NCBI RefSeq assembly: GCF_046119375.1
Contig: NW_027362763.1
Span: 853,368,001 to 853,432,000 of the forward strand
From: Phyllobates terribilis
Taxonomy: Eukaryota
Length of the DNA: 64,000 nucleotides
Direction: 5' to 3'
Below the pieces are notes generated by a model. That model saw nothing but the letters and a program-made list of their open reading frames with translations. It made no database searches and was not told where the DNA came from. A program made the translations under genes and the position numbers. The first letter of the stretch is position 1; each line of letters opens with the position of its first letter. Of this stretch, positions 4,647 to 61,939 are shown in pieces.

Positions 4647-6435
4647 CAACCCCTGGCAAAAATGATGGAATCACCAGGCTCAGAAGATGTTCATTCAGTT
4701 GTTCAATGTTGTTGAAAAAAAGCAGATCACAGACATGGCACAAAACTAAAGTCATTTCATATGGCAACTTTAGGGCTTTAACCCTAGAACGCATACCTGG
4801 GGCCTAGCAGGCCCGCCCTGTTAATTGTTTTCTATTTTCTGCAAGATTACTTTAGTTAGAATTTTGAAACTCTAGGTATTCCTCAGGTATATAGTTGTTT
4901 GTCATTTTTGTTTGAGTTATTCCATGTTATTTGCACATGGGCCTAAAAAGTGCAACAAAATACTAGTGATGTATTGGAGTGTTGTTTTGTGTGTTTGTTT
5001 TTCATGATTCTGACGCGCCCCCTGGGCCATATTCTTTAGGGGAATACCCGGAGCCGGATCAGATGGGGGTTGTAGTCTCCGAGTGGCTGTGACCCGGTCC
5101 GTGCCCAGGGTGTCAAACTCAGTGTGTGTGGCAGTCCTACAGATGTTACAAAGTTCGTTATGTCGACTACGCCACCCGTTGGATTGCGGTCACTACGGCC
5201 GCCGCTGCAGCAGGGTCCGCTGAGGCTGATGGTGTTGGTGCAGCTTTAGATAGTATAACCCCCAACGGGAGGGGTATGGCCTCAGGGGGTCAGGTGCAGA
5301 GGATGGGGGTTGTGGTGGTGCAGCGTAGATGTTAAGTAAAGACAGAGTCGGGTTGTGCAGTTCAGGGTGTTTACTTACTGCAGATATTCCGGTCACTCCG
5401 GCCTTCAGTGACCACCCGAGCCGTGCTGCGTCCACCAGGTCCTGGATTCAGCCAACCCCCAAGCAAGTCCGGAGCGTGTCCCTGAGCCCTCCTTCTTGTC
5501 CTTTCTTCTGGCCGTCCCCACCAGGGATCCACCTAGGTCCAGCTCCCTCGGGCCTTCTGTTGGGAGACCCTTGGCCTTGGGTTCCCTGACCCTACTCGTG
5601 GTTTGCCTTCAGGGTGGATGTGGTGGGTGGCCGTGGCAGATCCTGCCCACGGCCTCCGGTCTCTGGCTGAGGTATGCTTTAGCCCCCACCAGTTTGGGAT
5701 CCGGTACCCTATTGCCAACTCTTCACCCTAGGATTGTATTTGGGGTCTCAGAGTTCCTTCTGTCTTCCCCTCTGGGTCTTTCTGGCTCTCCTCTCTCACT
5801 CTTGCTCTGGGGCTGCTCTGCTCCTCTTCCTCTGACTTCTCTCAGACTGACTGACTCCTCACAGACTGACCCTGATCTTAGTTGGTGCCCACCTTATATA
5901 CTCCCTCTATGTGTGAGCTCAGGTGACCAGCACCCAATGAGCTCCTATCTTTACCCAGGCTGCTCCCCCTATCTGCCCCTACACTACTGGGATGTACCAC
6001 CCCCCTCCCACTCCAGCCAGGAACAGACTCGGTCGTACCTGCACATTTCTAAGTGGGAGTACCGTTGGTCTGCTCCTCGGAAATGGGATGTGTGTAGTGC
6101 ATGCAGCTGACTGAGCTCAGTTCCACACTCCATCCTTACCCGGGAGTGGAATATCACACCTCTGGGTTGAGGTGCAATACCCCTGTAGCAGCCGAATCCT
6201 CAGGGTGCTACAATTCCATAATTTTTTCCTCAGAATTGGTCTGAAAAAAATTACCCTTACTGAGTACCACATTGTTAATCTTGATTTCTTTTAGTGTTTC
6301 TTAAAGCCCTAAAGTTGCCATTTGAAATGACTTTAGTTTTGTGCCATGTCTGTGATCTGCTTTTTTTCAACAACATTAAACAACTGAATGAACATCCTCC
6401 GAGCCCGGTGATTCCATAATTTTTGCCAGGGGTTG
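4647..6435. mobile_element. non-autonomous Tc1/mariner element, interrupted by a solo LTR
   Basis: TA|caacccctggcaaaa ... ttttgccaggggttg|TA; ~135-bp TIRs at 4647-4780 and 6302-6435; no transposase. Confidence 0.88.
5011..6212 (-). mobile_element. solo LTR, same lineage as the LTRs at 42648 and 46383
   Basis: TGACGCGCCCCCTGGGCC...GGTGCTACA termini; 4-bp TSD ATTC (5007-5010, 6213-6216); several blocks shared with the 42.6-kb LTR. Confidence 0.9.
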
Positions 6436-21697: not shown

Positions 21698-22842
21698 TCA
21701 GTAAAAAAAGCAGCCATAGAGTGTCTGGGAACCTTCCCACACACAATACTTAGCCAGGACTGCTTCTCGGCAGGGTTGGACGGTCCCACCAGAGAATCCT
21801 CTGGTGTGCCTTGGCTTCTACCTCAGGAGAATTCATGATAGCGCTAACTTTGCAGCTGCTATGGGGATCTTGAGAAAGGCTAGCCCTCAGAATCAAATCC
21901 TCTGGTGGGCACAATGTTTTTCAATTTGAAACAGCTTCTCAGTGGGAGTTGTATTTCACCACAGCCATATTCTTTAGCTTGGTGAAAGGACAGGCATAGA
22001 GGGAAACCGTATCTACCCCGGCTGTCATTTCTCCGTCACCAGGTTCCACCCATTGTCACACACGACCATGCCTGGCTGTATGTTCAACGGTGAGAGCCAC
22101 AGATCAGGCTGCTGTGTTACAGCTTTCACCAACTCTACAGCGCTGGGCGGTTTGTCAATTAAGTATTAAGCATGTTATCTTCAGCACAGCCTGTTGCCGC
22201 TTGGCCAAGGCAGTGCTGCAGTGCTGTCAGCTTGTGACTGATGTGGTCATTTCGGAGATGGAGGAGGAGGTGCATGAGCTGAACAATGTGATTACATTGA
22301 GGTTAAATTGGTGACGCTGTTTTTTATACTAAAGAAAAATCCTATTGTTTTGTTTTTTTACGTTATTTTTTAAGACAAATGCATTCACCGGGAAATGTCA
22401 TTTTAACATTTTACAACCTTATCTGGCAATGTGGTGTGTGACACATCATCAGACACATCCTGTTTTATTTATGATGCAGGGACTCTGAAAGTCATAAAGC
22501 CTATTTTTATAGGGACATCAGATGGCCCTTACTATTCTTAAAAGGCCAGCAGTCGGCCCTAGCTATTGTTAGAGAGCCATCAGCCGGCTATGCTTTGTTG
22601 TTCCCATTATTAACAAGTGGGTCTCCTATACTGTTATTGCGTATCCAGTGACTGCAAGGGCTGTCAAAAATTTGGACGCAACCCAATACCTCTTTGAAGA
22701 GACATAGAGGAGGGTCTCAGTAAAAAAAAATGTTCCCATTATAAAGGAGCGGGTCTCCTATAGTGGTAATGCCCATGCTGTGACCCATGCAGTGAGTCCA
22801 ACGGCTGACCAATTTTAGGAAGAACACCACTAAGAATTTAAA

Positions 22843-23134
22843 GACACATAGAGCACGGCCACAGTAACAAGGTACGACATGTTCCCATTAGAAAGGAGAG
22901 GGTCTGCTATACAGTTATAGGGTATGCAGTGAGTCCAATGGCTAACCAATTTTAGGAAAAACCCCACTAAGAATTTAAAGACACATGGAGCAGGGCCACA
23001 GTAACAAGGTACGACATGTTCCCATTAGAAAGGAGAGGGTCTGCTATACAGTTATAGGGTATGCAGTGAGTCCAACGGCTGACCAATTTTAGGAAAAACA
23101 CCACTAAGAATTTAAAGACACATAGAGCAGGGCC
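22843..23134. repeat. 137-bp tandem repeat in hAT internal DNA (second array 27839-28130)
   Basis: gacaca(t/c)(a/g)gagc recurs at 22843, 22980, 23117 and at 27839, 27976, 28112. Confidence 0.85.
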
Positions 23135-23180
23135 CAGGGGTGGATTAAGAGTAGTAAGGGCCCCGGGCAGTTTAGAAGGC

Positions 23181-23956
23181 GCTGCAGAAACGCTTAAAAA
23201 ACGCTTGGTAGAAGGTCTGCAATGTTCCCCAATGATAATCCGCATGTGCTGTGCACATGCTGCGGTAATTTCCGCTGCGGATTATCATTGCGGAAAAATC
23301 CGCAGCATTACCAATTATTTTGCGGAAGCGCTGCGTTTTCGCCCCCATTGACTTGCATTGGAACGCATGGAATCCGCATCACTGCATCTGTACATGCGGA
23401 ATCCATGCGTTTCAATGTGCGGATGGTACCCGGGTCTGGAGAGGAGGAGACTCTCCTCCGGACCCGGGTACTATAGAATCTGTTAAAAAAGAATACAATA
23501 AAAAATATTATACTTACCTTCTGATGGCCCCCGGTGTCTTTATCCGATGCGTCCCAGCTTGCCGGCAGCTCGCGATGGTCTGAAAAGGACCTGCCGTGAC
23601 GTCATATAGTCATGTGACGGGTCACACGACCGCTGACGTCGGCAGGCCATCAGAAGGTAATTGTATATTTATTTTTTATTTTTTACCATTCTTTTACGGT
23701 CACACTATATAAATCCATGCTGGTTGCATGGATTTATATAGTGTGACCAAGTTGTTAAGCACTTTCCAAGTGATGCTAAAATCGCTTGGAAAGCGCTTGT
23801 CAACCCGCATGCAGAAATGCATGTGAAGAACGCTTCACTTCCGCTTGTCCCTGGCAGGAAAAACGCATGTACAATCCGCATGCGTTTTTTCTGCCAGGGA
23901 GATGCAGAAACGCTCAAAAAAAATCCGGAGCATTTCTGCATCGTGGGCACATAGCC
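23181..23956. mobile_element. 5'-truncated Harbinger-type MITE (family of 13795 and 51681)
   Basis: Direct similarity to 13845-14752; ends cgtgggcacatagcc|TTA. Confidence 0.7.
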
Positions 23957-24890
23957 TTACATTAATTGTATGACTCAATATTGAGCACATGTAGCCATCT
24001 ATACATGGCGGGAGGCCGCACAGCGCCATCTATACACAGCGGGATGCCGCACGGTGCCATCTATACACAGCGGGAGGCCGCACGGTGCCATCAATGCACA
24101 GCAGGAGGCCGCTCGTAGCCATCTATAGACAGCAAGAGGCCGCACGTAGCCATCTATACACAGCGGGAGGCCACACGTAGCCATCAGTACACAGCAGGAG
24201 GCTGCACGTAGCCATCTATACACAGCGGGAGGCCGCACGGCGCCATCTATGCACAGCGGGAGGCCGCACGGTGCCATCAATACACAGCAGGAGGCCGCAC
24301 GGTGCCATCTATAGACAACAGGAGGCCGCAGGTAGCCATCAATACACAGCAGGAGGCCACACATAGCCATCTATACACAGTGGGAGGCTGCACGTAGCCA
24401 TCTATACACAGCAGAACCCCCCACAAAGCCATCTATACACAGCGGGGGGCAGCATGTAGCTGTCTATACACAGCGGGAGGCCGCACGTAGCCATCTATAC
24501 ACAGCGGGAGGCCGCACGTAGCCATCTATATACAGCAAGAAGCCGCACGTAGCCATCTATATACAGCAGGAGGCCGCACGTAGCCATCTATACACAGCAG
24601 GAGGCTGCACGCCGCCATCTATATACAGCGGGAGGCCGCACGTAGCCATCTATATACAGCGGGAGGCCACACGTAGCCATCTATACACAGCGGGAGGCCA
24701 CACAGCGCCATTTATGCACAGCGGGAGGCCACATGTAGCCATCTATACACAGCAGGAGGCCGCACGTAGCCATCTATATACAGCGGGAGGCCGCACGTAG
24801 CCATCTTTACACAGCGGGAGGCCGCACGTAGAAATCTATACACAGCAGGAGGCCGCACGGCGCCATCTACACACAGCAGGAGGCCACATG

Positions 24891-26794
24891 TGTTACGCTC
24901 GCGCCCCGACTGACTGGCATGAGCGTGATTTGTGATCCCACTGGACCATGAACCGAGGAGTGCCTGGAGGGGCATAACTAAGTATCAACCCGGTCTGACC
25001 AAGGTCGCATGGCGGCTCAGTCGACTCTGTGAACCAGGGAGGAACCGAGCAGAGGGACCAGGTGCTACTCCAGGTCAGACCCCTGTCACAGCTGTTGACC
25101 CACACCGGGGAATGCAGGAACAGGCAGGTTAGTCTGGCATATTGACAGGTGGGTACTGGCAGGCACGGCTGGTATTCAGACAGGTGGATATTGACAGGCA
25201 CAGCTGGTATGGCATGCAGACAGGTGGGCACAGGCAGGCACGACTGTCATGCAGACAGGCAGGTACTGGCAGGTAGGAACTTAGGCAGGAGAGGGACCAG
25301 TACAGACTGGGATACAGGAACGGAGCCGCAGGTGCGGTAGACAAGCAGAGCGGAGCAAAACCCGAAGGTGCAGTAGACAAGCACAGCAAAGCAAAACCCG
25401 CAAGTGCGGTAGACAAGCGGAGCAGAGCAAAACCCGCAAGTGCGGTAGACAAGCGGAGCAGAGCAAAACCCACAGGTGCGGTGAACAAGCAGAGCAGAGC
25501 AAAGCCGCAGGTGCGGTAAACAAGCAGAGCAAAGCAAAACCCGCCGATGCGGTGAACAAGCAGAGCAGAGCAAAACCGCAGGTGCGGTAAACAAGCAGAG
25601 GAGAGCACAACCCGCAGATGCGGTGAACAAGCAGAGCAGAGCAAAACATGCAGATGCGGTGAACAAGCAGAGCAGAGCAAAACCGCAGATGCGGTGAACA
25701 AGCAAAGCAGAGCAAAATCCGCAGATGCGGTGAACAAGCAGAGCCGAGCAAAACCGCAGGTGCGGTGAACAAGCAGAGCAAAGCAAAACCCGCAGATGTG
25801 GTGAACAAGCAGAGAAGAGCAAAACAGCTGGTGCGGTGAGCAAGCAGAGCAAAGCAAAACCCACAGATGCGGTGACCAAGCAGAGCAGAGCAAAACCGCT
25901 GGTGCGGTAAACAAGCAGAGCAAAACCCGCAGATGCGGTGAACAATCAGAGCAGAGCAAAACCGCAGATGCGGTGAACAAGCAAAGCAGAGCAAAACCGC
26001 AGATGCGGTGAACAAGCAAAGCAGAGCAAAACCCGCAGATGCAGTGAACAAGCAGAGCACAGCCGAAGGCGCAGGCAGACAGGACAGGGCTCTGTTCACA
26101 TGGAACAGACTGGAAAATACAGGAAGATAGTTAGAACACAGGAGGTAGATACGGAGTCAGGGAAACGGGACAAGCAGAACCAGATACACGCAAGGTACTT
26201 ACAATGAAGTAGCGAGTGGACACAAAACTCACAAACAGAAATACAGAGACAACGAGTTGGAGTTAGGTGCAGGTTCAGACACTGCAGGAAGAGGGAAGGT
26301 TCGGACACAGAGAAAAACAGGTAACGGGCTAGGACACTGTTCAGACAGGAACTGAACCAAGAGCAAGATACAGGAACGAGCCTGGGAACTCAGCCCCCAG
26401 GGTGGCAGAAACAGACTAGAAGTCACAGATACAGGCAACAGGCCTGGGTATACAGCCCCCAGGGTGGCAGAACAGACAAGATACAGGACAGGACCTGGCA
26501 ACTCAGTTGCACAGAACACACTGAATGAAAGTGTTCCTTAGGCACCTCCTACTGGGTGGAGGGGGTTTAAGTATTCAGTGACTCACAGCAATAGGCTGGG
26601 GACGCATTAGGACTGTGCACCCTGTAGCTTTAAGAATCAAGAAGTAACAGCGCCGCCGCCCTAAGCCAGCAGACAAGAGACATACAAACAGCAGGTACTG
26701 GAGCAAAGTGTGCAGCCTGGCCTGATAGGTAAGATTGCAGTCTTGCATGGTGGGAGGTGGTAAGCCATGCAAGCACGCCGCCAGGGATGTTACA
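24891..26794 (-). mobile_element. 1.9-kb solo-LTR-like element with internal minisatellite
   Basis: TGTTAC...GTTACA termini; 5-bp TSD ACATG (24886-24890, 26795-26799); TATA-like tacttaaa on the - strand near 26570. Confidence 0.82.
25330..26070. repeat. ~30-bp minisatellite (gcagatgcggtgaacaagcagagcagagcaaaacc)n
   Basis: Tandem units; source of the Leu/Cys-rich spurious ORFs. Confidence 0.92.
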
Positions 26795-27159
26795 ACATGT
26801 AGCCATCTATACACAGCAGGAGGCCGCGCGGTGCCATCTATATACAGCAGGAGGCCGCACGTAGCCATCTATATACAGCGGGAGGCCGCACGGTGCCATC
26901 TATACACAGCGGGAGGCCGCACGTAGCCATCTATACACAGCAGGAGGCCACACGTAGCCATCTATACACAGCAGGAGGCCGCACGTAGCCATCTATACAC
27001 AGCAGGAGGCCACACGGCGCCATCTATACACAGCGGGAGACCACACGGTGCCCCCCCTGAGACAGCAGGAGGCCGCACGCAGTCACGCACACACAAACAT
27101 ATACATACACGCATAAACACATTTGAAACACAAAAATACATATAAACAGACATCACACA

Positions 27160-27245
27160 ATGATATCTGCCTGCACACACACACACTCTCACACACACAC
27201 TCTCACACACACACACACTCTCACACACACTCTCACACACACTCA
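27160..27245. repeat. (CA)n/(CT)n microsatellite
   Basis: Direct reading. Confidence 0.9.
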
Positions 27246-28590
27246 CCATCCCCCGGCTCCAGTCCTCCTACTCCTCTCCGGTGCAGCAGTGCAGGCCGGG
27301 CGCGCATTGTGTGACGTCACAGCTAGGAGACACGGCCGCGCACAGGGCCGTGTCTCCTAGCTGTGACGCGGCTGGGCCAGCACACAGGGAAGTTAACAGG
27401 TGCAGTGCTGGCTCGGCCGAAGAAGAAGTAGCGGCCGTGCGCCGCTGCTGGGGGAGCGGTCCGGGGTCCCCCCCGCCACTGTCTGCCAGTATGTGCCGCA
27501 GCGCCGCACATATAATGACGGCAATCTGGCCATAGACACCCCGGAGCCCCAGGCCCCCTGGAGGCCCGGGACCCCGGGCGGTAGCCCAGATTGCCGGCTA
27601 TGCTTTGTTGTTCCCATTATTAGCAAGTGGGTCTCCTATACTGTTATTGCGTATCCAGTGACTGCAAGGGCTGTCAAAAATTTGGACGCAACCCAATACC
27701 CCTTTGAAGAGACATAGAGGAGGGTCACAGTAAAAAAATGTTCCCATTATAAAGGAGCGGGTCTCCTATAGTGGTAATGCCCATGCTGTGACTGCAAGGT
27801 CTGCCAAAATTTGGGAAAAACCCCACTAAGAATTTAAAGACACATAGAGCTGGGCCACAGTAACAAGATACGATATGTTCCCATTAGAAAGGAGAGGGTC
27901 TGCTATACAGTTATAGGGTATGCAGTGAGTCCAACAGCTGACCAATTTTAGGAAAAACACCACTAAGAATTTAAAGACACATAGAGCAGGGCCACAGTAA
28001 CAAGTACGACATGTTCCCATTAGAAAGGAGAGGGTCTGCTATACAGTTATAGGGTATGCAGTGAGTCCAACGGCTGACCAATTTTAGGAAAAACTCCACT
28101 AAGAATTTAAAGACACACAGAGCAGGGCCACAGTAATGACAAATTCCCATTAGAAAGGAGAGAGTCTCCCATAGTGTTGACCTATGGAGTGAATGCAAGG
28201 GCTGCCAAAAATTTGGAGGCACTTAAATGCCCCTTGGAAGAGACGTGGAGGAGGGCCTCATAAAAAAATGTTCCCTTTAGAAAGGAGCGGGCCTCCTATA
28301 CTTGTAATGCCCATGCACTAAGTGTATGGGCTGACAAACATTTACCCCTAGGAGGTATACATGAACATACTGCATAAAAATTTTTTTTTTCGGGCATCAT
28401 AAACACCCTTTAAAAAAATTATGTGGGTGTTGCATCACCGACCACGGTCACCCTGGTGATATGGTGGTGGAGGATGAGGAGAAGGAGGAGGACAAGAGCA
28501 AATAGACAAAATCAGGAAGCGTATATCCATGTGTAGGTGTGAAAAGGTGCATGGGAATACACCTCCCAAGAAAATACACTGGATTTGAGT

Positions 28591-38834: not shown

Positions 38835-38977
38835 TTAAGACACTTTCAGGCCTGTTCATGAACAAAAGTGCGTTGATTATTGGAATCCGGCGTGTCTACA
38901 ATGCTGTCCGATGTTCCATCCTATCAGTTGTGTTGCGGTACATTGCTGATCATTATTTCTCTGTTTGTTCCCTACAG

Positions 38978-39136
38978 CCTTACATATTAGCTGATGAACT
39001 TCGTCGAGAACTTCCTCCAGAACAAGCCCAGTACTGCATCTCCAAGATGCCTCCATACTCTGGCCGCGGCGCTGTCCCCGGTGCTTTAGATTATTCCTGC
39101 TTCTCAACTGCTTTGTACGGAGAAAGTGACCTGTAA
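38978..39136 (+). CDS. ACTN2: ACTN2 last coding exon ([10 protein letters not shown]...ALYGESDL*)
   Basis: gttccctacag acceptor; canonical alpha-actinin C-terminus YGESDL followed by TAA. Confidence 0.96.
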
Positions 39137-40081: not shown

Positions 40082-41042
40082 GAATAATCGTCATATATAA
40101 TCTGTAATAATACCAATATTTGTGTGGTAAATTGAGTTATAATTCTCTTTGCTGAATTGGTCAATACATACAGTAGCTAGTTCTACCTGGATAACATATG
40201 GGGGCAGATTTACTAAACCTGTGCAATATTTAGACACCGCAAACTTAGACTAGACAGGACAAATATGTGTCTAAATGATGGCAGTGGTTCAATCTGGATA
40301 ATAAATTTGACGCATTTTTATGTGTAACTTTTTGTATAACTTTGCACCACCTCTTGGTCATCTGACTTTGCACCACTTTTTTGTGTATAAAGTTTTCCAC
40401 AATTCGGCTCATGCCCCTTTGTAAGCCATCCCCTTTTCCTCACAGCCATGACCCCTGGTCAGAAAAAGCATACAAGCAGTCTAACACATAATAAATAGGC
40501 AGAAAACGTTCTGTGTCATTTTGGCAAATTTATTTAGAAGGTCTTGAGTTAAAGGGGCTTTATATTTTCAGGAAAGTGGACTCCAAGCGCTTTAAAATGC
40601 ATGAAATAATAAACATAGCAGGTACTCACCCTCCCTGGTTTCATCACCAGCTCCCCAACGTTACTTGGGTCTCAGTGTTTTGGCTGTAGTGTTGATATCA
40701 TGTAAACAGCACACATCACCGCTGCAGCCAATCACTGAGATCAGCGGCTGTGCTGAGGTAGACACCAAAAGCCGCTGAGCTCAGTAATTGGCTGCAGCGG
40801 TGATGAGAGTTGTTGATAAGATGTCACCGCTGCAGGAAAAATATCAAAATCTGAACACCAGCGGAGAGCTTGTGCTGGACTCTGGAGGGAGAGTAACTCC
40901 TCCTTTTGTTATTTTAGGTATCTTAGAGCCTTTGGGGTACACTTTCCTGATAGAGGAAAAAAACCTTCATTCTGCTTTAAACATTTCATAGCTTGCATTC
41001 TTATGGGACTGTATTTATTATAAGTTATTCAATGCAGTTTAA

Positions 41043-42245
41043 GACCTCATTCTGAAGTCAGTGTTTTCACGTATGCAAAAAAATGGTCAGTATGTTATCA
41101 GTGTTTGGTCGGTGTGTCATCAGTGTTTGGTCGGTGTGTCATCGGTGTTTGGTCGGTGTGTCATTGGTGCTTGGTCGGTGTTTGGTCGGTGTTTGATCAG
41201 TGTGTTATAAGTGTTTGGTCAGTGTGTCATCAGCGCTTGGTCAGTGTGTCACCAGCACTTGGTCGGTGTGTCATCAGTGTTTGGTCGGTGTGTCATCGGT
41301 GCTTGGTCGGTGTTTGGTCGGTGTTTCATTGGTGTTTGTTCGGTGTGTCATCGGTGCTTGGTCGGTGTTTCATTGGTGTTTGGTCGGTGTGTCATCGGTA
41401 GTTGGTCGGTGTTTCATTGGTGTTTGGTCGGTGTGTCATCGGTGCTTGGTCGGTGTTTCATCGGTGTTTGGTCGGTGTGTCATCGGTGCTTGGTCGGTGT
41501 TTCATCGGTGTTTGGTCAGTGTGTCATCGGTGCTTGGTCGGTGTTTCATCGGTGTTTGGTCGGTGTGTCATCGTTGTCTGGTCGGTGTGTCATCGATGTT
41601 TGGTCGGTGTATCATCAGTGTTTGGTCGGTGTGTCATCGGTGTTTGGTCAGTGTGTCATCGGTGTTTGTTCAGTGTGTCATCGGTCGGTGTGTCATTGGT
41701 GTTTGGTCGGTGTGTCATTGGTGTTTGGTTGGTGTTTCATCGGTGTTTGGTCGGTGTGTCATTGGCGTTTGGTCGGTGTGTCATCGGTGTTTGGTCGGTG
41801 TGTCATCGGTGTTTGGTCGGTGTGTCATCAGTGATTGGTCGGTGTGTCATCAGTGATTGGTCGGTGTGTCATCAGTGTTTGGTCGGTGTGTCATGGGTCG
41901 GTGTGTCATCGGTCGGTGTGTCATTGGTGTTTGGTCAGTGGGTCATCAGTGTTTTTCACATATGGATAAATAAATATTCATTACAATATTAACCATGGGC
42001 AGCAAACGCACTGCACACTGATGCAATATGTGTACTGTATGTGTTTTTCATGGACCTATAGACTTGAACTGGCACATCCATGCTGCTGAAAAAAATGTCT
42101 CCGTGATTTTTGCACAGACACACAGTCCGGGGAAAAATATGGACATGTGAACAGCCCCATAAACTACTGTATAATGGCTACATTTTCAATCTGAGAAAAT
42201 CACTGATAGAATATGTACGTGCAACACGGACGTCTAAATGAGGCC
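41043..42245. mobile_element. Harbinger-type MITE expanded by a minisatellite
   Basis: TAA|gacctcattc ... aaatgaggcc inverted ends. Confidence 0.6.
41100..41950. repeat. ~22-bp minisatellite (tcggtgtgtcatcggtgtttgg)n
   Basis: Head-to-tail units with no unique spacers. Confidence 0.93.
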
Positions 42246-43992
42246 TTCTAAAGATAGCTGTTTAGAAAATTCTTAGTTGTCCAGGGAAACACACTACAAT
42301 GTAGCACCATCTCGCTGTCAGACATGTGGCTTTAGGCTGGAATGACACTTGCAGTTTCTGATAGGGCTTGTCTGTGTTAAAGGTACTGCACTCACCTCTG
42401 CTTGAAGTACAACACTTTCTGATGGCTCTATTCGTGATGGACTGCTGCCACTAGGTCTGACTATTTAGTTGTTCTTTTTAAGCACCACTCCAGCGTTTTT
42501 TTTTATTTCACCGCTGGAGTGGTGCTTAAAATCCAAGTCCCCTGCCCCCTGTCTGATACTTACTTTCTGGTGTTTTCATCTGTTTTCGCTGCGGTTCTGG
42601 TCCTTCTTCTGCAGTTTGTGACCTGCCAGCTTTTCCAGTGTTGCATGTGACGCGCCCCCTGGGCCGCGCGTGTGAGGGGATACCCGGAACCGGACCCGTT
42701 GCGGATGCTGGGGGTTGTAATCCTCGTGTGGCGGGGACCCGGTCCCGTGGCTCAGGGTGGTCAACTCAAATGGCGGTCTATTTATGTGGTTTTTATGATA
42801 TTAAATGTCCAACTACGCCACCCGTGGATTGCGGTCAGGATGAACCGCCGCTGCAGGGCAGACCGCTAAGGTTGGTGTTGTGGGTGCAGCAGTGTGTGAT
42901 ACAACTCCCCACGGGAGGAGTATAGCCTCAGGGCAGTGTATGCGGAGAATGGGGGTGATGGTGCAGGAGTAGCAGTAACGACACGGAGTCAGTGATGCAG
43001 TCCAGGGTCTTTACTCACAGTTCTTATTATCCAGACCACTTCTGCAGGTAACGGCTGCCCATGTCGTACTGTGCTCACAAGGTGAGGGGCTCGGCCGACT
43101 CCCAGGTATCTCCGGAGTGTTTCACAGGACCCCCTTTGTGTGTCCTTTCTCTGACCTGTCATACCCCGCCAGTGACCTCGCTTCTGTCCGGCTGCCTCGG
43201 GCCTTCTCTTGGTAAACTTGGCGCCAGTTTCCCTGACCCTATATGGTGCCATCCTAGCAGGTGTAGCGAGGGGCTGCGCCACATGAAATGTCACAGCCTC
43301 CGGTTTCTAGCTGAGGGTAGTTCCCCGCCTCCACTAGTTTCGGGGACCGGTCTCCCCCTTTGGCCTGACCCTTCTACGCAGGTAGATTCGGGCGTGTGGT
43401 GGCGACTCGCCGGTCCACACCCATGGGGTCCCTTCGTTCCTTGTTCCTGGAGCCTCCTCCGCTCCTCTTCCTTCCTTCTCCTTCCTTCAGGCTCCGGCCT
43501 CTCTCTTAGGCCTTCCTGCGGAGCAGAGCCCATGCAGAGCCTCTGCTCCCACCTCCTGCTCCCTCTTCTTCTGTCTGACTGAACTAACTCTTCTCTTTCA
43601 GTGCTGGCTGGGCCTCACAGGCTAGGCCCGCCTCCGGAGCGGAGCTCCACAGTGGCCCTGCTCTGTCACTTCTTCTCTCAGACTGAACACAGAACTAAGA
43701 TGGTGCCCACTTTTTATACCTCCCTCTAGGTGCACCCAGGAACTGCTTCCTCCCTGCTCCTGCACTACAGGGTTCCCCCTTCCTCGGTGTTCCCTCCCCC
43801 CACTCCAGCCAGGGACAGGGACTGTCGTGCTCTACTTGGAGCATATCGGTCGCCCTGCCCCCCGGAAATGTGGTGTAATGCATTCAGGTGTCGGGGTCCT
43901 GATCCACACTCCATCCTTACCTGAGAGTAAGATATCGCACATCTGGTTGAGATGCAATACCTCTGTAGCAACCGAGCCTTCGGGGTGCTACA

Positions 43993-44003
43993 TTCCCCCC
44001 TGG
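43993..44003 (-). other. polypurine tract abutting the 3' LTR
   Basis: Minus strand ccaggggggaa|TG. Confidence 0.75.
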
Positions 44004-44721
44004 TAAATCACAGCACGTCCACGGGCTGGAACAGAGCAAAAGACAATGACAATTAGGGCATGCAAAAATTTATTTATTTATTTATTTTTTAAATTGTCAA
44101 CTGCATATCACTTCCCTTTATGGGAAACATTTTCTCTTTTCAACATTATAAATGCACTTTTAATATCAGGGGAACTCTTTTCTCAAACATCATGTAAAGC
44201 ATCATATAAAGCATTTCGGTATATAAAACTTTTCATATAAAACGTTTTCAAGTGGACTCTCTTGTACTAGCCGCGGTGTAACTTGCGACCAGGTGTCCAT
44301 TTTTCAATAAAGTGGAAACTTGCAAACAGGTAACAGACGAACATGAGGGACCCGTTCGTAAACCCTCAACGTAGGCCCTGGGGTGGCTGCAGGGCGTAGC
44401 TGATCCAGCTGCTGGACCTCGTCTTCGGCCACCTCTAATGGGTTTTTGTTCTGAGGTCAGTTGTTGTAGTTCTTTTATAAAACCAGTAGGGGGCACTTTA
44501 AGAAGTGCAATTATTTACAAAGTTGACCGCTCCCAGTCCTCGGCCGGATAGTTCACAAAAGTTGGCTGCTCCCAGTCCTCAGCCGGCTATTACTAACCCG
44601 TCTCCGGGTAACTTTCAGCAAAAACAAACAGGCAACAGTCAGGCAACAGTCCCCGTCTGGGGTAAACTCTTTCTTCCTGTACCCTAACGGGCAACTATGT
44701 ACAGTGCACTCACGTTTTCCT

Positions 44722-45030
44722 TTAATAGCGGCGTCCTCCTTGTGCATGCTCTTCCTCCTCGCCATACTCTTCAGACCCGTCCGGGTCCTCTGGGTAGTAG
44801 TGCTCATGGTAGTGTTCTTCTTCCACCCTCTGGACATTGAGGGCATACCACCCTTTCAGGCCTCGATGTCGGGTGTATATTACCCGATCTCCCGGGAACA
44901 ACTCCCGCTTCGGGTGACCCGCTGGCAGGTGACCCTCCACATCCCTCCTGTCAACATAGAGGTCTGTGGCTGTGGTAGAGTCCCGGATAAATCCCCACCC
45001 TTTCTCCTGGTGGAACTTTACCACAGTCCC
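44722..45030 (-). CDS. cold-shock (CSD/OB-fold) domain with acidic tail, C-terminal part of the LTR-element ORF
   Basis: GTVVKFHQEKGWGFI (RNP1-like), DLYV (RNP2-like), LFPGDRVIY and GLKGWYALNV align in order with CspA/YBX motifs; tail EEEHYHEHYYPEDPDGSEEYGEEEE. Confidence 0.8.
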   Translation of the reverse strand, partial: GTVVKFHQEKGWGFIRDSTTATDLYVDRRDVEGHLPAGHPKRELFPGDRVIYTRHRGLKGWYALNVQRVEEEHYHEHYYPEDPDGSEEYGEEEEHAQGGRRY

Positions 45031-45144
45031 AGCATTTTTAGGACCGCGTGCAGCTTGGGGGTTTCGGCGGGTTCGTGTCTTCTCCGTGCTCCGGGCCTGC
45101 AGCTGCTCCCTCTTCTAGCGCCGCGCCAGCTCTTCTTTCTCGAG

Positions 45145-46356
45145 CTACCTGATTTCCCGCTCACAGAACTCCTGCCTTCGAGCTGTGGCCGCCCGCGTCT
45201 CCTGCGCAAACCCCATCAGATCCTCCCTGGTCTGGTCCCACTCGATCTGGACCTCTTCCTCCGGGAGCTGGGGAATGGCGACTGGCTGTGGCACGGGCAG
45301 GAGCGGAGCAAGCGGAGCCTCGGCCTCTGCGGACAGGTTCTTCCGCTGACTGGGGTGAACCCATCCCTCTGGCACAGAGACCGGCTCTCCATCGGGTCCG
45401 GCGAGCTGGCTGTACAGGTCGGTCCCTAGGGGTGGTGGCTTCGGGATCTGGGGCGCATGCGGTTCGGAGGCGCCTGGGGAGGTCAGGCCTTGCGACCGGG
45501 CCTGGAGCAGGCCGCTTCCGACCGCACCCGGGGTCAGGGGGCACGGCCTGGGGCTTGATCCGGCGACGGTGCTCACGGCTTGGGACCTGTGTGCAGGCGG
45601 CGGGAGTGGGGGAGGCACAGCGATGCCCGAGACGTCTGGCTCCGCGACAGGGTCTGGAGGCAGGTTGGTAACATCAGGGCTGGTGGCAGGGGTGTCCCCC
45701 TTACCTGCTTCCAGGGCTGCGCTGCTCTCAACTTCTTCCGGCCTCCGCTCCTTGTCCTCAGGGGCAGGCTCGCTGGCCGGTGCTGGCGGCGTCCCGTGCT
45801 GCTGGGCTGCGACCCGCCGGGCCATCTCCTCTCTCCATCCTGCTACAGCTTCCCGCTGCGCCTGGACCATCCTCCGGTCCAAATCCTCCAACGCAGTTCG
45901 AAGGAACTCCGGGTCTTCTCCAGGGAGCTGAGCCATCAGCTCCCTGAGGCTGTACGGGGCCACGATGGCCTGCAGCAAGCCACCCATCAGGGTGCTGGAG
46001 TCGGTGCTGCTCGCCATCTCCGGGTGTGGTCTGCCGAGACTGATCCAAACCACACCCTGTCCCCCGGTTTTCTTCTCTTTCCGCCCCTGTTGGGGGTGGT
46101 CCTGGGGCAATCTTCTGACCATCACTCTTAGGGGCAGCCCCCCCACGTTGATGGACATCTCTACAGCCGCACTCATGGCTGTTGGGGGTGGGCTCCATCT
46201 TTGGCGCCATTCTGGGACCTCACCCACGATGGGAGGTGGTTTCCTGTTGTCTTTTGGCGCGCACATTATGGCGTCCGTTCTGCTAGGGCGGGCGCCATAT
46301 TTAATACAGTGAAACAGTCTCTTTTCAGGCACGCAGTACCCATTGGTGGCGGGCAC
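45145..46356 (-). CDS. LTR-element ORF, N-terminal part: Pro/Ala-rich with predicted helical segments; unknown function
   Basis: 403 open codons starting right after the PBS (GTG 46356; ATGs at 46266 and 46176); same frame as the cold-shock-domain ORF. Confidence 0.65.
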   Translation of the reverse strand: MPATNGYCVPEKRLFHCIKYGARPSRTDAIMCAPKDNRKPPPIVGEVPEWRQRWSPPPTAMSAAVEMSINVGGLPLRVMVRRLPQDHPQQGRKEKKTGGQGVVWISLGRPHPEMASSTDSSTLMGGLLQAIVAPYSLRELMAQLPGEDPEFLRTALEDLDRRMVQAQREAVAGWREEMARRVAAQQHGTPPAPASEPAPEDKERRPEEVESSAALEAGKGDTPATSPDVTNLPPDPVAEPDVSGIAVPPPLPPPAHRSQAVSTVAGSSPRPCPLTPGAVGSGLLQARSQGLTSPGASEPHAPQIPKPPPLGTDLYSQLAGPDGEPVSVPEGWVHPSQRKNLSAEAEAPLAPLLPVPQPVAIPQLPEEEVQIEWDQTREDLMGFAQETRAATARRQEFCEREIR

Positions 46357-46358
46357 GA

Positions 46359-46377
46359 AATCCTGCCAACTACTCCA
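46359..46377 (-). other. primer-binding site complementary to tRNA-Ser (AGA/UGA) 3' end
   Basis: Plus strand aatcctgccaactactcca versus recalled vertebrate tRNA-Ser end aatcctgccgactacgcca (17/19), 5 nt from the 5' LTR. Confidence 0.8.
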
Positions 46378-47446
46378 AAAGTTGACGCGCCCCCTGGGCC
46401 GCGCGTGTGAGGGGATACCCGGAACCGGACCCGTTGCGGATGCTGGGTGTTGTAGTCCTCGTGTGGCGGGGACCCGGTCCCGTGGCTCAGGGTGGTCAAC
46501 TCAAATGGCGGTCTATTTATGTGGTTTTTATGATATTAAATGTCCGACTACGCCACCCGTGGATTGCGGTCAGAATGAACCGCCGCTGCAGGGCAGACCG
46601 CTGAGGCTGGTGTTGTGGGTGCAGCAGAGTGTGATACAACTCCCCACGGGAGGAGTGTAGCCTCAGGGCAGTGTATGCGGAGGATGGGGGTAATGGTGCA
46701 GGAGTAGCAGTGATGACACAGAGTCAGTGATGCAGTCCAGGGTCTTTACTCACAGTTCTTATTATCCAGACCACTTCTGCAGGTAACGGCTGCCCATGTC
46801 GTACTGTGCTCACAAGGTGAGGGGCTCGGCCGACTCCCAGGTATCTCCGGAGTGTTTCACAGGACCCCCTTTGTGTGTCCTTTCTCTGGCCTGTTATACC
46901 CCGCCAGTGACCTCGCTTCTGTCCGGCTGCCTCGGGCCTTCTCTTGGTAAACTTGGCGCCAGTTTCCCTGACCCTATATGGTGCCATCCTAGCGGGTGTA
47001 GCGAGGGGCTGCGCCACATGAAATGTCACAGCCTCCGGTTTCTAGCTGAGGGTAGTTCCCCGCCTCCACTAGTTTCGGGAACCGGTCTCCCCCTTTGGCC
47101 TGACCCTTCTACGCAGGTAGATTCGGGCGTGTGGTGGCGACTCGCCGGTCCACACCCCTGGGGTCCCTTCATTCCTTGTTCCTGGAGCCTCCTCCGCTCC
47201 TCTTCCTTCCTTCTCCTTCCTTCAGGCTCTGGCCTTTCTCTTAGGCCTGCCTGCGGAGCAGAGCCCATGCAGAGCCTCTGCTCCCACCTCCTGCTCCCTC
47301 TTCTTCTGTCTGACTGAACTAACTCTTCTCTTTCAGTGCTGGCTGGGCCTCACAGGCTAGGCCCGCCTCCGGAGCGGAGCTCCACAGAGGCCCTGCTCTG
47401 TCACTTCTTCTCTCAGACTGAACACAGAACTAAGATGGTGCCCACT

Positions 47447-47453
47447 TTTTATA
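47447..47453 (-). promoter_or_regulatory. TATA box of the 5' LTR
   Basis: TATAAAA on the - strand, present in both LTRs; the solo LTR at 5011 has a TATAAG counterpart. Confidence 0.55.
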
Positions 47454-50124
47454 CCTCCCTCTAGGTGCACCCAGGAACTGCTTCCTCCCTGCTCCTGCAC
47501 TATAGGGTTGCCCCTTCCTCGGTGTTCCCTCCCCCCACTCCAGCCAGGGACAGGGACTGTCGTGCTCTACTTGGAGCATATCGGTCGCCCTGCCCCCCGG
47601 AAATGTGGTGTAATGCATGCAGGTGTCGGGGTCCTGATCCACACTCCATCCTTACCTGAGAGTGAGATATCGCACATCTGGTTGAGATGCAATACCTCTG
47701 TAGCAACCGAGCCCTCGGGGTGCTACACATGGAGCGCGGTGGAGGTCACTAATCAATGTAATTCTTGTTCTTGGAGCCTTGTTCTGGCCTTGTTCCAGCT
47801 CTCACAGAATTGCATTGACAGCTTGTGACGTAACTTCTGAATTCCGGCCACTCAGAAGCTGCGCTCACAAAAAGGCGTCGCGGGACCGGAGCACCACTGA
47901 AAAACAGTGACAACCCCGGAGTGTGAGTATATGATCGGAGGCAGGGGATTTACATTTAAAGCACCAATCCAGCGTTGAAAAACAAATGCTGAAGTGGTGC
48001 TTTAACACTAAGGCTATGGCTACACGGCGACTTTGGCTGCAATAGAAGTTCACTTGGTGCTACTACTTCCTCACAGTGCTATAACAGTGAATGGGGTTGT
48101 ATTGCAACACTTACACTACCACGACAAGCAAGTGCCAAAAAATCAAGTCTGTTTTTTTGCGATTTGCTTCATAAAACCTTTAAAAGATCTGTCTTCAGAG
48201 CCCAGTCTTGACATTTCAACTTCTGTCAGGTTTAAGCCTCCCTTACCTCGGCCGTGTCTCTGAGAACTGAACACCTTGTACTTCTGGACACTCCAGGGAG
48301 GCTGCAGTTCTGCAATATGACAGCACTGGAGGATAATGTTTTTCATGACCAAGTTGAATATTTGCAACAAAGCTTTTGTTGGTTTTGTGATCACACCCCA
48401 ATATCTTATCAATTTCAAGAGTGCTGCATCCCTCTGTAAGACATGAAACGATTTATGACTTTTAAGAGTTGGTTAAATCTCTTTTTTGGCCCATTTTGCC
48501 TGAGGAAAACAAGCTGCCTAATAATTCTGCACGCATTGATAAAGGGTGCTGTATCCTTAGGCCTCACTCTTTTCATTACACACGTTCACATCACCTGATC
48601 TGCTTCATCCAATAAGCATTCAAGTTTATATGTGTGGTAGATCGGCTGCACACGGAGGTAGACACAGGAACGCTGTTGCTTTAAATTTCTCAGTGGTTTA
48701 TTAAGGCATGGCATAAACCACTTTCAAGTCCATCAAAACAAACAGGCCTTTCTTGGCATAAAGGGGTAAACAAAATAAAAATAGTTATCACAGTCCAGAG
48801 GCCTGTGGGGATCCGCCCGCACAGGGTTAGCAAATCACACATGGTTCAGGTCCGTACAACCACGAGCTCCTTTCTCTGGAGCTAGCCTCTCCAGATACAC
48901 TGAACAACTAATGCCTCAGCAGGCCTTCTATTTAAACCCCAGACCACACCCTGGGGGGGAGATATTGTGAATGACCTCCCACCCGCTCTATGGTTGTTCA
49001 CAAAAACCTAGCCCTTTTGAAATGGCTGCTTAACACCTTGCAGCACTTAGTGTGCTGGAGCAAACACTTCTGGGTTTCAGATCACTGAAGCTAATAGCCT
49101 CAGTGAAACATCCCTCCCCTCCAGCACTTTGCCAGTGACTTTGTCACAATGGCTTGGCGCTGGAAAATCTGCATAAAAATGATGATATGGTCAAAATTCT
49201 CACTTACCTAATATTTGTGCATACAGTGTACTTGTTTTACCTCTATCTCAACCCACTCCTTGATTTTGACTGACAGCTCTGGCCTTACAGAACCAAAGAA
49301 TGGTGGAGATAGAGGGTAAACAAGTAGGTGGAAAGGTGCACTTAAATGTTTGGCCACGCCAATGACTTGGTTTGAACAGTCATTCTGTGCCAACAGTGTC
49401 CCTTTAAGCATTTTTTTAAGTTTTCTTAGAGAAACACACCCTATCTGAGCAAATAGTTTCCAGAGCAACCACAATGCAAATCATCAGAATTGTGAATTAA
49501 ACTTTAGACATAAATGGAGAATAAGACTTCATGTAACTTTAAATCCGTACAGTCTAACAAAAGGAAGGAGTTTACTAGGTTACAAAACTTTAATGTGAAT
49601 TTCAATTGTGGAATGTTAAAAAATTGTTATTTAAGGAGTTCACTGGAAATGGCCATATCTCATCACTGCATTCTGTAACTAATACAAGAGAATAATGTTT
49701 CAGCTTTTATGATTAACCCAGTCCACTGTTTTATTATCCTAAAAAAAATTACACATAAAATAAGAATAAAGGTTGTTAACTTGGTACATAATAAGCAGTA
49801 AGAAGTGCAATCACTTAATAAAGCCTTTGTGACTTTATACATTCAAAATTGATAAGCAGCACACTGAGACAAAACTATGACAACTTGTGCATTCAGAGGT
49901 GTAGCTATAGGGGGTGCAGAGGTTGCAGTTGCTTCTGGACCCTGCCTCCTGAGGGCCACAGAGTCCCTATTCCTCCTAAGATGACAGTAATGTTATAAAC
50001 TGTTCATGGCAGCTGGGAACCCTGCTACAGATTCTGCATTGGAGCCCTGGATCTTGCTGCAGAGCAGAACTCTTGCAAGACTATATATCGGAAAGTAAGA
50101 AGTCACCTGAACATCGCATCTATA

Positions 50125-59947: not shown

Positions 59948-61939
59948 AAGGTCAAAGATTTCACTTACTACATTACATGAGCGATATCTACTGTAAATTT
60001 GAATAGCTAAAGAAAAATGTAATGTAAAATAGCTCAGAAACCGGCGGATCCTCACAGCGCACAGTGCAGACCGGACAGTATAGTCCTCCATACAGTATTA
60101 TGGGCACCATATAATGCCCCATACAGGATACTGACCCCCATATAATGCTCCATACAGGATACTGGTCCCCATATAACGCTCCATACAGGATACTGGTCCC
60201 CATATAACACTGCATACAGAATACTGGCCCCCATATAACGCTCCATACAGAATACTGTCCCCCATATAACGCTCCATAGAGAATACTGACCCATATAACG
60301 CTCCATACAGAATATTGGCCCCCATATAACGCTCCATGCAGGCTGTTCCCCCCTTATAATGCCCCATTACACGAGCGATATCTATTGTAAATTCTACAAT
60401 AGCTCAGAAACCGGCGAATCCTCACAGCGCACAGTGCAGACCGGACAGTATAGTCCTCCATACAGTATTATGGGCACCATATAATGCTCCATACAGGATA
60501 CTGACCCCCATATAATGCTCCATACAGGATACTGGTCCCCATATAACGCTCCATACAGGATACTGGTCACCATATAACACTGCATACAGAATACTGGCCC
60601 CCATAAATTGCTCCATACAGAATACTGACCCCATATTTCGCTCCATACAGAATACTGACCCCCATATAACGCTCCATACAGAATACTGACCCCCATATAA
60701 CGCTCCATACAGAATACTGACCCCCATATAACGCTCCATACAGAATACTGTCCCCCATATAACGCTCCATACAGAATACTGACCCCCATATAAAGCTCCA
60801 TACAGAATATTGGCCCCAATGTAATGCTCCATGCAGGCTGTTCCCCCCCTTATAATGCCCCATTAAGGATGACACCCCCCTTTTAATGCCCTATGCAGGT
60901 TGTCACCTCTACCCCCCATAAAATGCCCCATGCAGGATGTCACCTCTCCCCCCATATAATGCCCCTTGCAGGATGTCACTTCCCCCCTTTTCAATGCCCC
61001 ATGCAGTATGTCAGACCACCCTCTCCCTTATAATGCCCCATGCAGGAGGTCACACACCCCCCCTCTTTATAATGCCCCATGCAGTATGTCACACACCCAC
61101 CCTCCTTATAATGCCCCATGCAGGATGTCAATTCCCCCTCCCCCTCTTATAATGCCCCATGCAGGATGTCACACCCCCTCCCTTATAATGCCCCATGCAG
61201 GATGTCACATCCGCTCCCTTATAATGCCCCATGCAGGATGTCACTTCCCCCCTTCCCCTCTTATAATACCCCATGCAGGATGTCACTTCCCCCCTTCCCC
61301 TCTTATAATGCCCCATGCAGGATGTCACACCCCCCACCCCCATATAATGCCCCATGCAGGATGTCACCCCCCCCATACCATATAATGCCCCATGCCCCCA
61401 TACATGAAAAAAATAAAAAAATCCAATACTCACCTCACTTCTTACCTGCTGCTGGCTCTGGTCCGGACTCCAGCGTTGTGCGCGTCTTCCCGCTCTGCAC
61501 TGTGACAGGTCAGGAGAGAGCGCGCGCGGTGTAAAGATGTCACCGCGCCCTCTGACCTGAGACGTCACAGTCAGAGAACGTGGAAGACGCTGCGGAGGCA
61601 CGGGGAGGGGTAAGCATTGTGCCGGCGCTGTCACATGACCGGAGATGTCCCTGCACTCAGCATGGGGCCGGGGACCCATGCTGAGCGCAGGGACATCTCC
61701 TTTCATGTGACGGTGGGGGGTGATGTGACGGCGGGGGGTCCTGCGTGGAGGCCCCATGAGGAGACGCACAAGAGGGGGGCCCCAACGGGGCTCCAAGGGG
61801 GCCCCGACCGGCCGGGCCCCATGCTGGAGTCAGGGCAGTCATGCCCTGATGGCAGCCCTGCTGGAGGCTGGAGGGGCCCCCTCTCCCTCGGGGGCCCCCG
61901 TTCAATGAACCGGCTGCACGGGCGGTAGGTCCGCCCCTG
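59631..61939. mobile_element. 2.3-kb non-autonomous hAT element packed with minisatellites
   Basis: CAGGGGCGGAC ... GTCCGCCCCTG TIR; 8-bp TSD ctccttcc / ctcctttc (1 mismatch); splits an older repeat that ends aggggTTAA near 62319. Confidence 0.82.
60090..61400. repeat. two adjacent minisatellites: ~30 bp (ccccatataacgctccatacagaatactga) and ~35-40 bp (cccccttataatgccccatgcaggatgtcac)
   Basis: Arrays at about 60090-60830 and 60870-61400; block near 59975-60360 is duplicated from 60370. Confidence 0.9.

Follow-up and report, generated by a model that had tools for sequence, protein, structure and literature searches.

The 64,000-nucleotide stretch of the Phyllobates terribilis genome analysed here (contig NW_027362763.1, positions 853,368,001 to 853,432,000 of the forward strand; hereafter the window) carries on its minus strand a 5,080-bp long terminal repeat (LTR) element with a single long open reading frame (ORF), whose product has one recognizable domain: a cold-shock domain (CSD). 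The element belongs to a family that is real, large and active, and we are confident that it is a helper-dependent element whose CSD ORF is under selection. Its features are listed below from 5' to 3' in window coordinates, where dN/dS is the ratio of non-synonymous to synonymous divergence.

47728-47731, minus strand: target-site duplication (TSD) CATG, 5' side
42648-47727, minus strand: whole LTR element, 5,080 bp
46383-47727, minus strand: 5' LTR, 1,345 bp, TGTAGCA...GCGTCA
47453, minus strand: TATA-like box of the 5' LTR
46750, minus strand: AGTAAA poly(A)-like signal of the 5' LTR
46314-46750, minus strand: segment of U5, primer site and leader in common with the putative helper (87% identity to helper copy L088)
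46360-46377, minus strand: primer-binding site, complement of the tRNA-Ser 3' end, 16 of 18 positions matched in this copy
44722-46266, minus strand: single long ORF, 514 codons from the first shared Met, with two private TAG stops
45805-45957, minus strand: conserved N-terminal helical segment, a long predicted helix of no known family (dN/dS 0.26)
45037-45243, minus strand: W-D-x-x-G-x-D-L-M-G-F motif and charged helix of ~45 residues (dN/dS 0.20)
45145-45147, minus strand: in-frame TAG, near-private to the window copy
45115-45117, minus strand: in-frame TAG, private to the window copy
44827-45033, minus strand: CSD (Pfam PF00313) with a loop of Y-box length (dN/dS 0.15)
44344-44458, minus strand: 3' untranslated motif in common with the putative helper (82% identity)
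43993-44003, minus strand: polypurine tract CCAGGGGGGAA, adjoining the 3' LTR
42648-43992, minus strand: 3' LTR
42644-42647, minus strand: TSD CATG, 3' side

The original prediction of an LTR retroelement is borne out by this anatomy. The two 1,345-bp direct repeats are 97.9% identical and have TG...CA termini, as expected of an LTR-class repeat, and CATG duplications flank them. Across the family, an exact 4-bp TSD was found in 59 of the 69 elements with both ends located and a 5-bp TSD in none (loci in this count can overlap). In young copies the primer-binding site is a perfect match to the 3' end of tRNA-Ser; the primer complement occurs with tRNA T-arm context at 31 genomic places, and ARAGORN called a tRNA-Ser in four of the ten loci scanned. 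Contigs of four runs, which are not on record as RNA, span the element and its flanks. Within the element the CSD is the only Pfam match. Gag and the protease, reverse transcriptase, RNase H and integrase (PR-RT-RH-IN) of an autonomous Ty3/Gypsy element were not found, and with one long ORF and no other Pfam match the CSD protein is the sole cargo, as first proposed. An antisense frame of ~315 aa was rejected as a second gene, given that frames of at least 250 aa were not reported there in the young intact copies L128-L133 and L136. The 3' untranslated motif resembles sequence in related gag-pol Gypsy elements and contains hairpin-like stretches by eye; it matched no Rfam family, with nothing near the gathering score, and it is possibly a packaging or export element.

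Read-through translation confirms one minus-strand frame from 46356 to 44722 that is interrupted only by the two TAG codons. The frame described originally thus stands; its length of 544 codons does not, as that count begins at a GTG just past the primer site. The first Met common to all subfamilies lies at 46266 and a second widely shared Met at 46017. Among other copies picked through the junction of LTR end and primer site, the first TAG is a stop in 1 of 20, and among copies picked through the CSD in 1 of 21; the second is a stop in 0 of 23 and 0 of 43, respectively. Because other copies almost never have stops there, both TAG codons are post-insertion decay of the window copy; programmed stop-codon readthrough was rejected, as the stops are not conserved in the family. 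Over the first ~83 codons (46017-46266) the proportion of synonymous differences is 0.14, against 0.34-0.46 elsewhere in the ORF, and this low synonymous divergence suggests RNA-level constraint from an element overlapping the ORF start.

The full-length protein model is mostly disordered: 314 of 513 residues score below 50 in the predicted local distance difference test (pLDDT). Besides the CSD, it shows two helices, at 119-156 and 357-401. A Gag or Pol origin of the ORF was rejected, since hhalign found no detectable homology to the helper Gag (probability 0.2%) or Pol (0.1%). A word-indexed protein search with the whole ORF gave no match among 8,000 candidates, and alignment to longer proteins returned only three, already-known relatives; both methods are weak for low-complexity queries. 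The embedding-atlas search with the N-terminal helix gave no usable match, and the whole-protein VIA search covered the CSD alone. Homodimer prediction for helix plus CSD scored 0.00, which speaks neither for nor against a dimer.

The assignment of the CSD itself is firm. Predicted at about 44827-45030, the domain scores 37.4 bits against Pfam PF00313 (E 2.4e-9, cut-off 27). In an alignment-based AlphaFold model (mean pLDDT 76.5), a helix of 45 residues precedes a barrel of five strands, and Foldseek matches this barrel to solved CSD structures at E 6e-6 to 1e-4; this was the structural check first suggested. When the family profile is compared with solved structures, YBX1/YBX2 come out best at 42.4 bits, bacterial Csp proteins reach at most 38, CARHSP1 and CSDE1 reach 19.3 and 19.1, and LIN28 is not listed at E 0.01. 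A tree sets the family CSD apart from the four CSDE1 domains of the same genome with 91% support. A CSDE1/UNR retrocopy was rejected on this separation and the low score, and nearby intronless CSDE1 pieces are excluded by the tree as the CSD donor. Pfam and profile scores, together with the pattern of selection described below, support the earlier claim that this is not a recent YBX1/LIN28 retrocopy. Like the family CSD, the Y-box proteins YBX1, YBX2 and FRGY2 have disordered flanks and the same loop length, in addition to giving the best sequence match. In contrast to them, the CSD is only ~30% identical to that of YBX1, the tail after it is short and acidic, the basic/aromatic-acidic C-terminal repeats are lacking, long helices lie upstream, and the gene is intronless and mobile; membership in the Y-box protein family was rejected on the identity and the missing basic/acidic C-terminal domain. 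More distantly, the embedding atlas leads from the CSD region to bacterial CSD clusters at 0.88-0.90, a BFVD search gave only phage and giant-virus Csp-like proteins, and no relatives were found in viral and metagenome contigs.

The family is abundant. A first look at the 10.6-Gb genome gave 36,840 CSD candidates, and at least 25,046 exact matches to the codon motif of the CSD RNP1 strand occur genome-wide, compared with 11 for the reversed control. We sampled 20 of the first 100 listed motif matches by position, taking about every fifth. All lie within the first 32 Mb of C1, a single chromosome end that may be atypical, and the demand for an exact motif biases the sample towards young copies. 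In this sample a Ser primer site lies 1.1-1.9 kb upstream in 18 copies, an LTR pair of the copy's own is detectable in 18, the LTRs are at least 98% identical in 16, and a frame of at least 500 aa is open through the CSD in 14. Stop-free copies, proposed at the outset as something to look for, are therefore present in the same genome. No gag or pol was found between the LTRs in any of these 20 copies or in any of 20 young copies of subfamily B.

Subfamilies (the letters A-G are our own labels) differ in age and in their LTRs. Subfamily A, which includes the window copy, has LTR divergences of mostly 1.5-4.6%, and 2 of its 23 junction-picked copies are intact. For subfamily B, 20 of 40 junction-picked places were fetched, a pick that favours the youngest copies; all 20 have open ORFs and 17 LTR pairs are 99.8-100% identical. 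Subfamily B is currently spreading. Subfamily C has a second variant of the Ser-type primer, and subfamily D is intermediate. Subfamily E (L255-L258, on G000 C5, C8, C11 and C9) has the same Ser primer, an 819-aa frame with a central, more distant CSD, and often forms tandem arrays with ~3.6-kb spacing. Since its 1.03-kb LTR is unrelated, subfamily E suggests that the CSD has moved between LTR lineages.

Related CSD sequences also occur in other settings. Three local paralogues on C4 (L231:4727-5623, minus strand, L238 and L249; G000 C4:791.47-791.52 Mb) have a low-copy, diverged CSD ORF of 299 aa, keep the RNP2 His and group with subfamily E. This cluster may represent an ancient remnant, a gene domesticated by the host or a sequence close to the donor; a link to a chromovirus was rejected, as the chromovirus-type sequence there is a nested insertion. 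Among proteins, a HMMER scan listed 28 at E of at most 0.001. Ten of these relatives were looked up: eight are poison-frog proteins named 'uncharacterized', 'unnamed' or 'CSD domain-containing' and two are unnamed, and the poison-frog relatives come from Phyllobates, two Ranitomeya species and Anomaloglossus. Their similarity to the P. terribilis subfamilies leads us to infer that they are LTR-borne as well. In one NCBI gene model (P0019), the N-terminal helix of the family is fused with an array of C2H2 zinc fingers and with a segment that looks KRAB-like by eye, which could be exonisation or a mis-prediction. P0025, an unnamed protein of 252 aa encoded on an ENA contig of 854 bp, resembles the family in layout, as a segment predicted to be coiled precedes its YBX-like CSD; a word-indexed protein search, which is weak for low-complexity queries, returned only P0025 itself.

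Nei-Gojobori (NG86) counts over seven independent pairs, in which no sequence was used twice and all were chosen as intact ORFs, give a dN/dS of 0.15 for the CSD (bootstrap 0.11-0.21), 0.20 for the W-motif and adjoining helix, 0.26 for the N-terminal helix and 0.29 for the linker. The Pro-rich part is looser at 0.55, as are codons 1-84 at 0.66, a stretch that has little synonymous divergence as well. When young B lineages are compared with one another, the value for the CSD is 0.06-0.08. A check on dN/dS across copies, suggested originally with neutrality as the alternative, has thus returned purifying selection rather than a value near 1. Because the seven pairs were pre-selected as intact, we made a second count over 23 copies picked without regard to their ORF, separating private changes from those shared by at least three copies. 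Over the whole ORF, dN/dS is 0.91 for private and 0.33 for shared changes; for the CSD, the corresponding values are 0.88 and 0.17. That is, the protein is selected while the element replicates and decays after insertion.

An element without gag or pol would have to borrow them, and a candidate lender was found. With a DNA query made of the LTR end and primer site only, we obtained 40 places, 38 of which were fetched (the window and one C8 duplicate were left out). At 11 of these 38 loci, five of them local duplicates on C8, the sequence runs into gag-pol after 69 nt. The Gag of this putative helper matches PNMA at 32.9 bits; its zf-CCHC match is weak (17.4 bits, below the cut-off), with a C-X2-C-X4-H-X4-C motif visible, and copy L088 has a 1,397-aa PR-RT-RNaseH-IN frame. 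The original statement that a CCHC nucleocapsid is absent consequently holds for the window element, which encodes none, and does not extend to the likely helper, which encodes one. None of four further helper copies contains the CSD motif. A second Gypsy element, which hosts copy L033, was rejected as helper of subfamily A because it has a different LTR and primer variant.

What ties the two elements together is a stretch of 440 nt, 87% identical between L088 and the window, that starts at the AGTAAA signal (46750) and comprises the last ~370 nt of the LTR, the primer site and the first 69 nt of the leader. The U3 regions of helper and window match at background level, with no alignment. In bins across LTR positions 1125-1375, window and helper are 81-96% identical; in the bin 1250-1375, sister copies of subgroup A2 match the window at only 68%, whereas the helper does so at 91-96%. 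At the junction, the helper is matched at 87.5-94% by subgroup A1, at ~77% by A2 and at 71-75% by B, and just downstream of the shared segment A1 and A2 are ~90% alike. The simplest reading is that A1 took up the helper's U5, primer site and leader by template switching, which would place both RNAs in one particle, and the segment is likely a packaging or priming cis element gained by recombination. LTR divergence in the helper overlaps that of subfamily A: it is 2.2% in L088, and two of the four other copies show 19 and 37 mismatches over ~1,020 nt. Subfamily A1 has, in other words, an autonomous partner with common cis signals and a similar age. The helper, the copy number, the subfamilies now spreading and the exchange of U5 and leader were all absent from the original prediction.

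Known non-autonomous elements offer partial parallels. Large retrotransposon derivatives (LARDs), terminal-repeat retrotransposons in miniature (TRIMs) and TR-GAG elements likewise keep LTRs, primer site and polypurine tract, lack pol and depend on helpers with common cis signals; among vertebrates, VL30 and ETn are examples of non-autonomous LTR elements. To our knowledge, such elements are normally non-coding or gag-only. LARD, TRIM and TR-GAG elements have no ORF or only gag, whereas the ORF of the window element is not a Gag ORF and is strongly selected at the protein level. PNMA-type Ty3/Gypsy elements (Metaviridae; PMC10516033) share with the satellite the LTR termini, tRNA-Ser primer, 4-bp TSD, U5/leader and 3' motif. 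The PNMA-type helper encodes a Gag with CCHC and PR-RT-RH-IN, with no CSD in the copies seen, while the satellite has the CSD ORF only and a different U3. Capture and retention of a host nucleic-acid-reader domain has a counterpart in the arthropod CopiaMBD elements (PMC6673714). These belong to Copia, and their domain reads methyl-CpG and has been proposed to direct integration; the frog satellite is Gypsy-dependent, and its sole gene carries a CSD. Retand/TRP28 plant Gypsy elements (PMC11963269) also carry an extra conserved ORF with probable nucleic-acid binding, and some are non-autonomous; theirs is an antisense ORF after pol with a different domain, while the satellite ORF is sense and the only one. 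Full-text literature searches listed no description of a CSD-encoding LTR element, in keeping with the earlier remark that no vertebrate LTR family of this kind was known, although supplementary transposable-element libraries, Repbase and Dfam could hold it as an unclassified repeat. For example, the word 'cold' is absent from PMC6278860, PMC4131045 and PMC10516033, the words 'transposon' and 'virus' are absent from the CSD review PMC7825780, and the available passages of PMC11445987 and PMC13534243 are unrelated to such an element.

How, then, might a CSD serve a satellite? We lean, by a modest degree, towards a non-autonomous Ty3/Gypsy satellite whose CSD protein binds the element's own RNA, protecting it and steering it into helper particles. 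Since capsid, protease, reverse transcriptase and integrase are all lacking, the element would need the helper's Gag: its RNA would be packaged in helper Gag particles, reverse transcription would be primed from tRNA-Ser, and the helper's integrase would insert the product. Common cis elements and recombination are the two things that point to mobilisation in trans, and the swap of U5 and leader would have come from template switching between co-packaged RNAs. Published work offers precedent for such a role. YB-1 stabilises retroviral RNA and aids particle production of murine leukaemia virus, mouse mammary tumour virus and human immunodeficiency virus (HIV) (PMC6040738). In frog oocytes, mRNA is masked by FRGY2 (PMC7825780), and Y-box proteins both package oocyte mRNA and stabilise it (PMC7226217). 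The ova of poison frogs contain large amounts of Gypsy RNA (PMC6278860). The family CSD keeps part of the aromatic stacking surface: among 122 distinct copies, a set in which the search pattern itself required some positions, RNP1 W-G-F is retained (W in 122, F in 118) as is the RNP2 F/Y (115), and strand 5 has gained a W/P-Y pair. Functionally, the protein may be compared with two others encoded by parasites. L1 ORF1p and the hepatitis delta antigen combine a long helix with an RNA-binding module and are thought to bind their own RNA, and the delta agent also depends on a helper for packaging; the analogy is one of function, and the replication systems differ.

Several points weigh against this reading. 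The beta-1 Trp and RNP2 His of YBX1 belong to the four classic stacking positions of Y-box proteins; both are replaced (by K/R and T/D/N) in 122 of 122 copies, and CSDs bind through stacking on exposed aromatics (PMC7825780). Nucleic-acid specificity is likely altered, and because of these replacements binding may be weak or not to RNA at all. No helper was found for the youngest subfamily, B: its best junction identity to any gag-pol element examined is 71-75%. That the protein would act mainly in cis is an argument rather than a result, namely that cheating copies with the ORF deleted would displace it if it aided every RNA alike. Capture of the CSD from a Y-box-type gene, which would have happened long ago, is only probable, because Foldseek does not discriminate (CARHSP1 and bacterial Csps rank level with YBX1) and the CSD tree is weakly supported and lacks an intact YBX row.

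A bolder form of the satellite reading, which we regard as possible rather than probable, is that the element dropped gag-pol, took up a host Y-box CSD as a cis adaptor to out-compete its helper for packaging, and swapped U5 and leader between helpers over time. If true, a single genome would have received intact genes for an RNA-binding protein by the many thousands, with a possible contribution to poison-frog genome expansion and interference with oocyte mRNA masking.

The protein could instead act in trans in the germline as an anti-silencing or host-manipulating factor, for instance as a decoy against FRGY2/YBX masking or as a shield from Piwi-interacting RNA or HUSH-type surveillance. We consider this unlikely. 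A domain probably captured from a host Y-box gene, with its stacking surface altered, would suit such a role, as would thousands of open copies that could titrate a host pathway, and gene capture by Drosophila telomeric elements is a precedent (PMC13534243), with VANC proteins perhaps another. A pure trans benefit could, however, be exploited by elements that lack the ORF, yet subfamilies A-E have all retained it, and no nuclear or chromatin module is among the Pfam matches of the ORF. Improbable, too, is a melting or strand-transfer chaperone that acts on single-stranded DNA or RNA inside the particle and favours reverse transcription of the satellite over that of the helper. It would accord with the implied recombination with helper RNA and with the block that YB-1 loss imposes on a step after HIV reverse transcription (PMC6040738), but the helper Gag brings its own zinc knuckle.

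We give very little credence to the idea that the ORF is kept for the frog's benefit (as a domesticated gene or a restriction factor against the helper), with the element a mere carrier. The ORF does appear in NCBI gene models of four poison-frog species and a low-copy diverged CSD cluster exists on C4, but selection falls on the replicating lineage while decay after insertion is neutral (dN/dS 0.91 for private changes, and just 2 intact ORFs in 23 older A copies), which weakens any host-gene account. Slightly less credible still is the nucleocapsid substitute entertained originally. An element with no CCHC and with a fold that binds single-stranded nucleic acid invites it, but capsid, protease, reverse transcriptase, integrase and Gag homology are all lacking, and it is made unlikely by the PNMA-type Gag with a zinc knuckle that the likely helper supplies. 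Least credible of all is that only an open translated frame matters (e.g. to avoid nonsense-mediated decay) and the CSD is a passive relic, since despite the low-complexity make-up of much of the ORF (dN/dS 0.55-0.66) and its 314 of 513 residues with pLDDT below 50, constraint is strongest on the CSD and helices (0.15-0.26), even between lineages whose CSD dS is near or above 1.

A helper-dependent satellite that holds a captured RNA-binding domain at a dN/dS of ~0.15 would point to an undescribed step that gives satellites an edge. RNA protection, packaging competition and anti-silencing are candidates, and they are testable with one small domain. The scale is unusual: should most of the at least 25,046 motif copies be full length, the family would take up ~125 Mb, which is 1% of the assembly. 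Most sampled copies are young with open frames, which bears on the large size of poison-frog genomes, and the system bears on how Y-box masking of germline mRNA may be exploited. Because family ORFs are already listed as 'uncharacterized' frog genes, mis-annotation is a further concern.

Further CSD sequences occur in this genome. An intronless CSDE1/UNR retrocopy at L121-L122 (G000 C1:734.437-734.449 Mb) is split by insertions of long interspersed nuclear elements, and the CSDE1 exons that come with introns are located at C2:702.79-702.81 Mb. Also seen were a degenerate YBX-like CSD that occurs singly (L232:4851-5054, minus strand) and a single-copy CSD with a short loop (L233:4847-5143, minus strand). 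Nested insertions at L070, L033 and L199/L234 comprise a young B copy in an A copy, an A copy that sits in the pol of a Gypsy element, and a chimera in which gag-bearing segments are joined to a CSD 3' half.

Elsewhere in the window, a 1.2-kb solo LTR of a related subfamily (5011-6212) has the same termini and a GAAT duplication, and is 74-82% identical to the element's LTR in patches. The last exon of an alpha-actinin-type gene lies at ~38975-39136 on the plus strand (Pfam EFhand_Ca_insen, 58.4 bits), and the element sits ~3.5 kb downstream of its stop codon. Minisatellite or tandem-repeat arrays with units of 31, 35-36, 11 and 137 bp occupy 22583-28338, 41018-41900 and 59994-61374, and several inverted-repeat elements are present as well.

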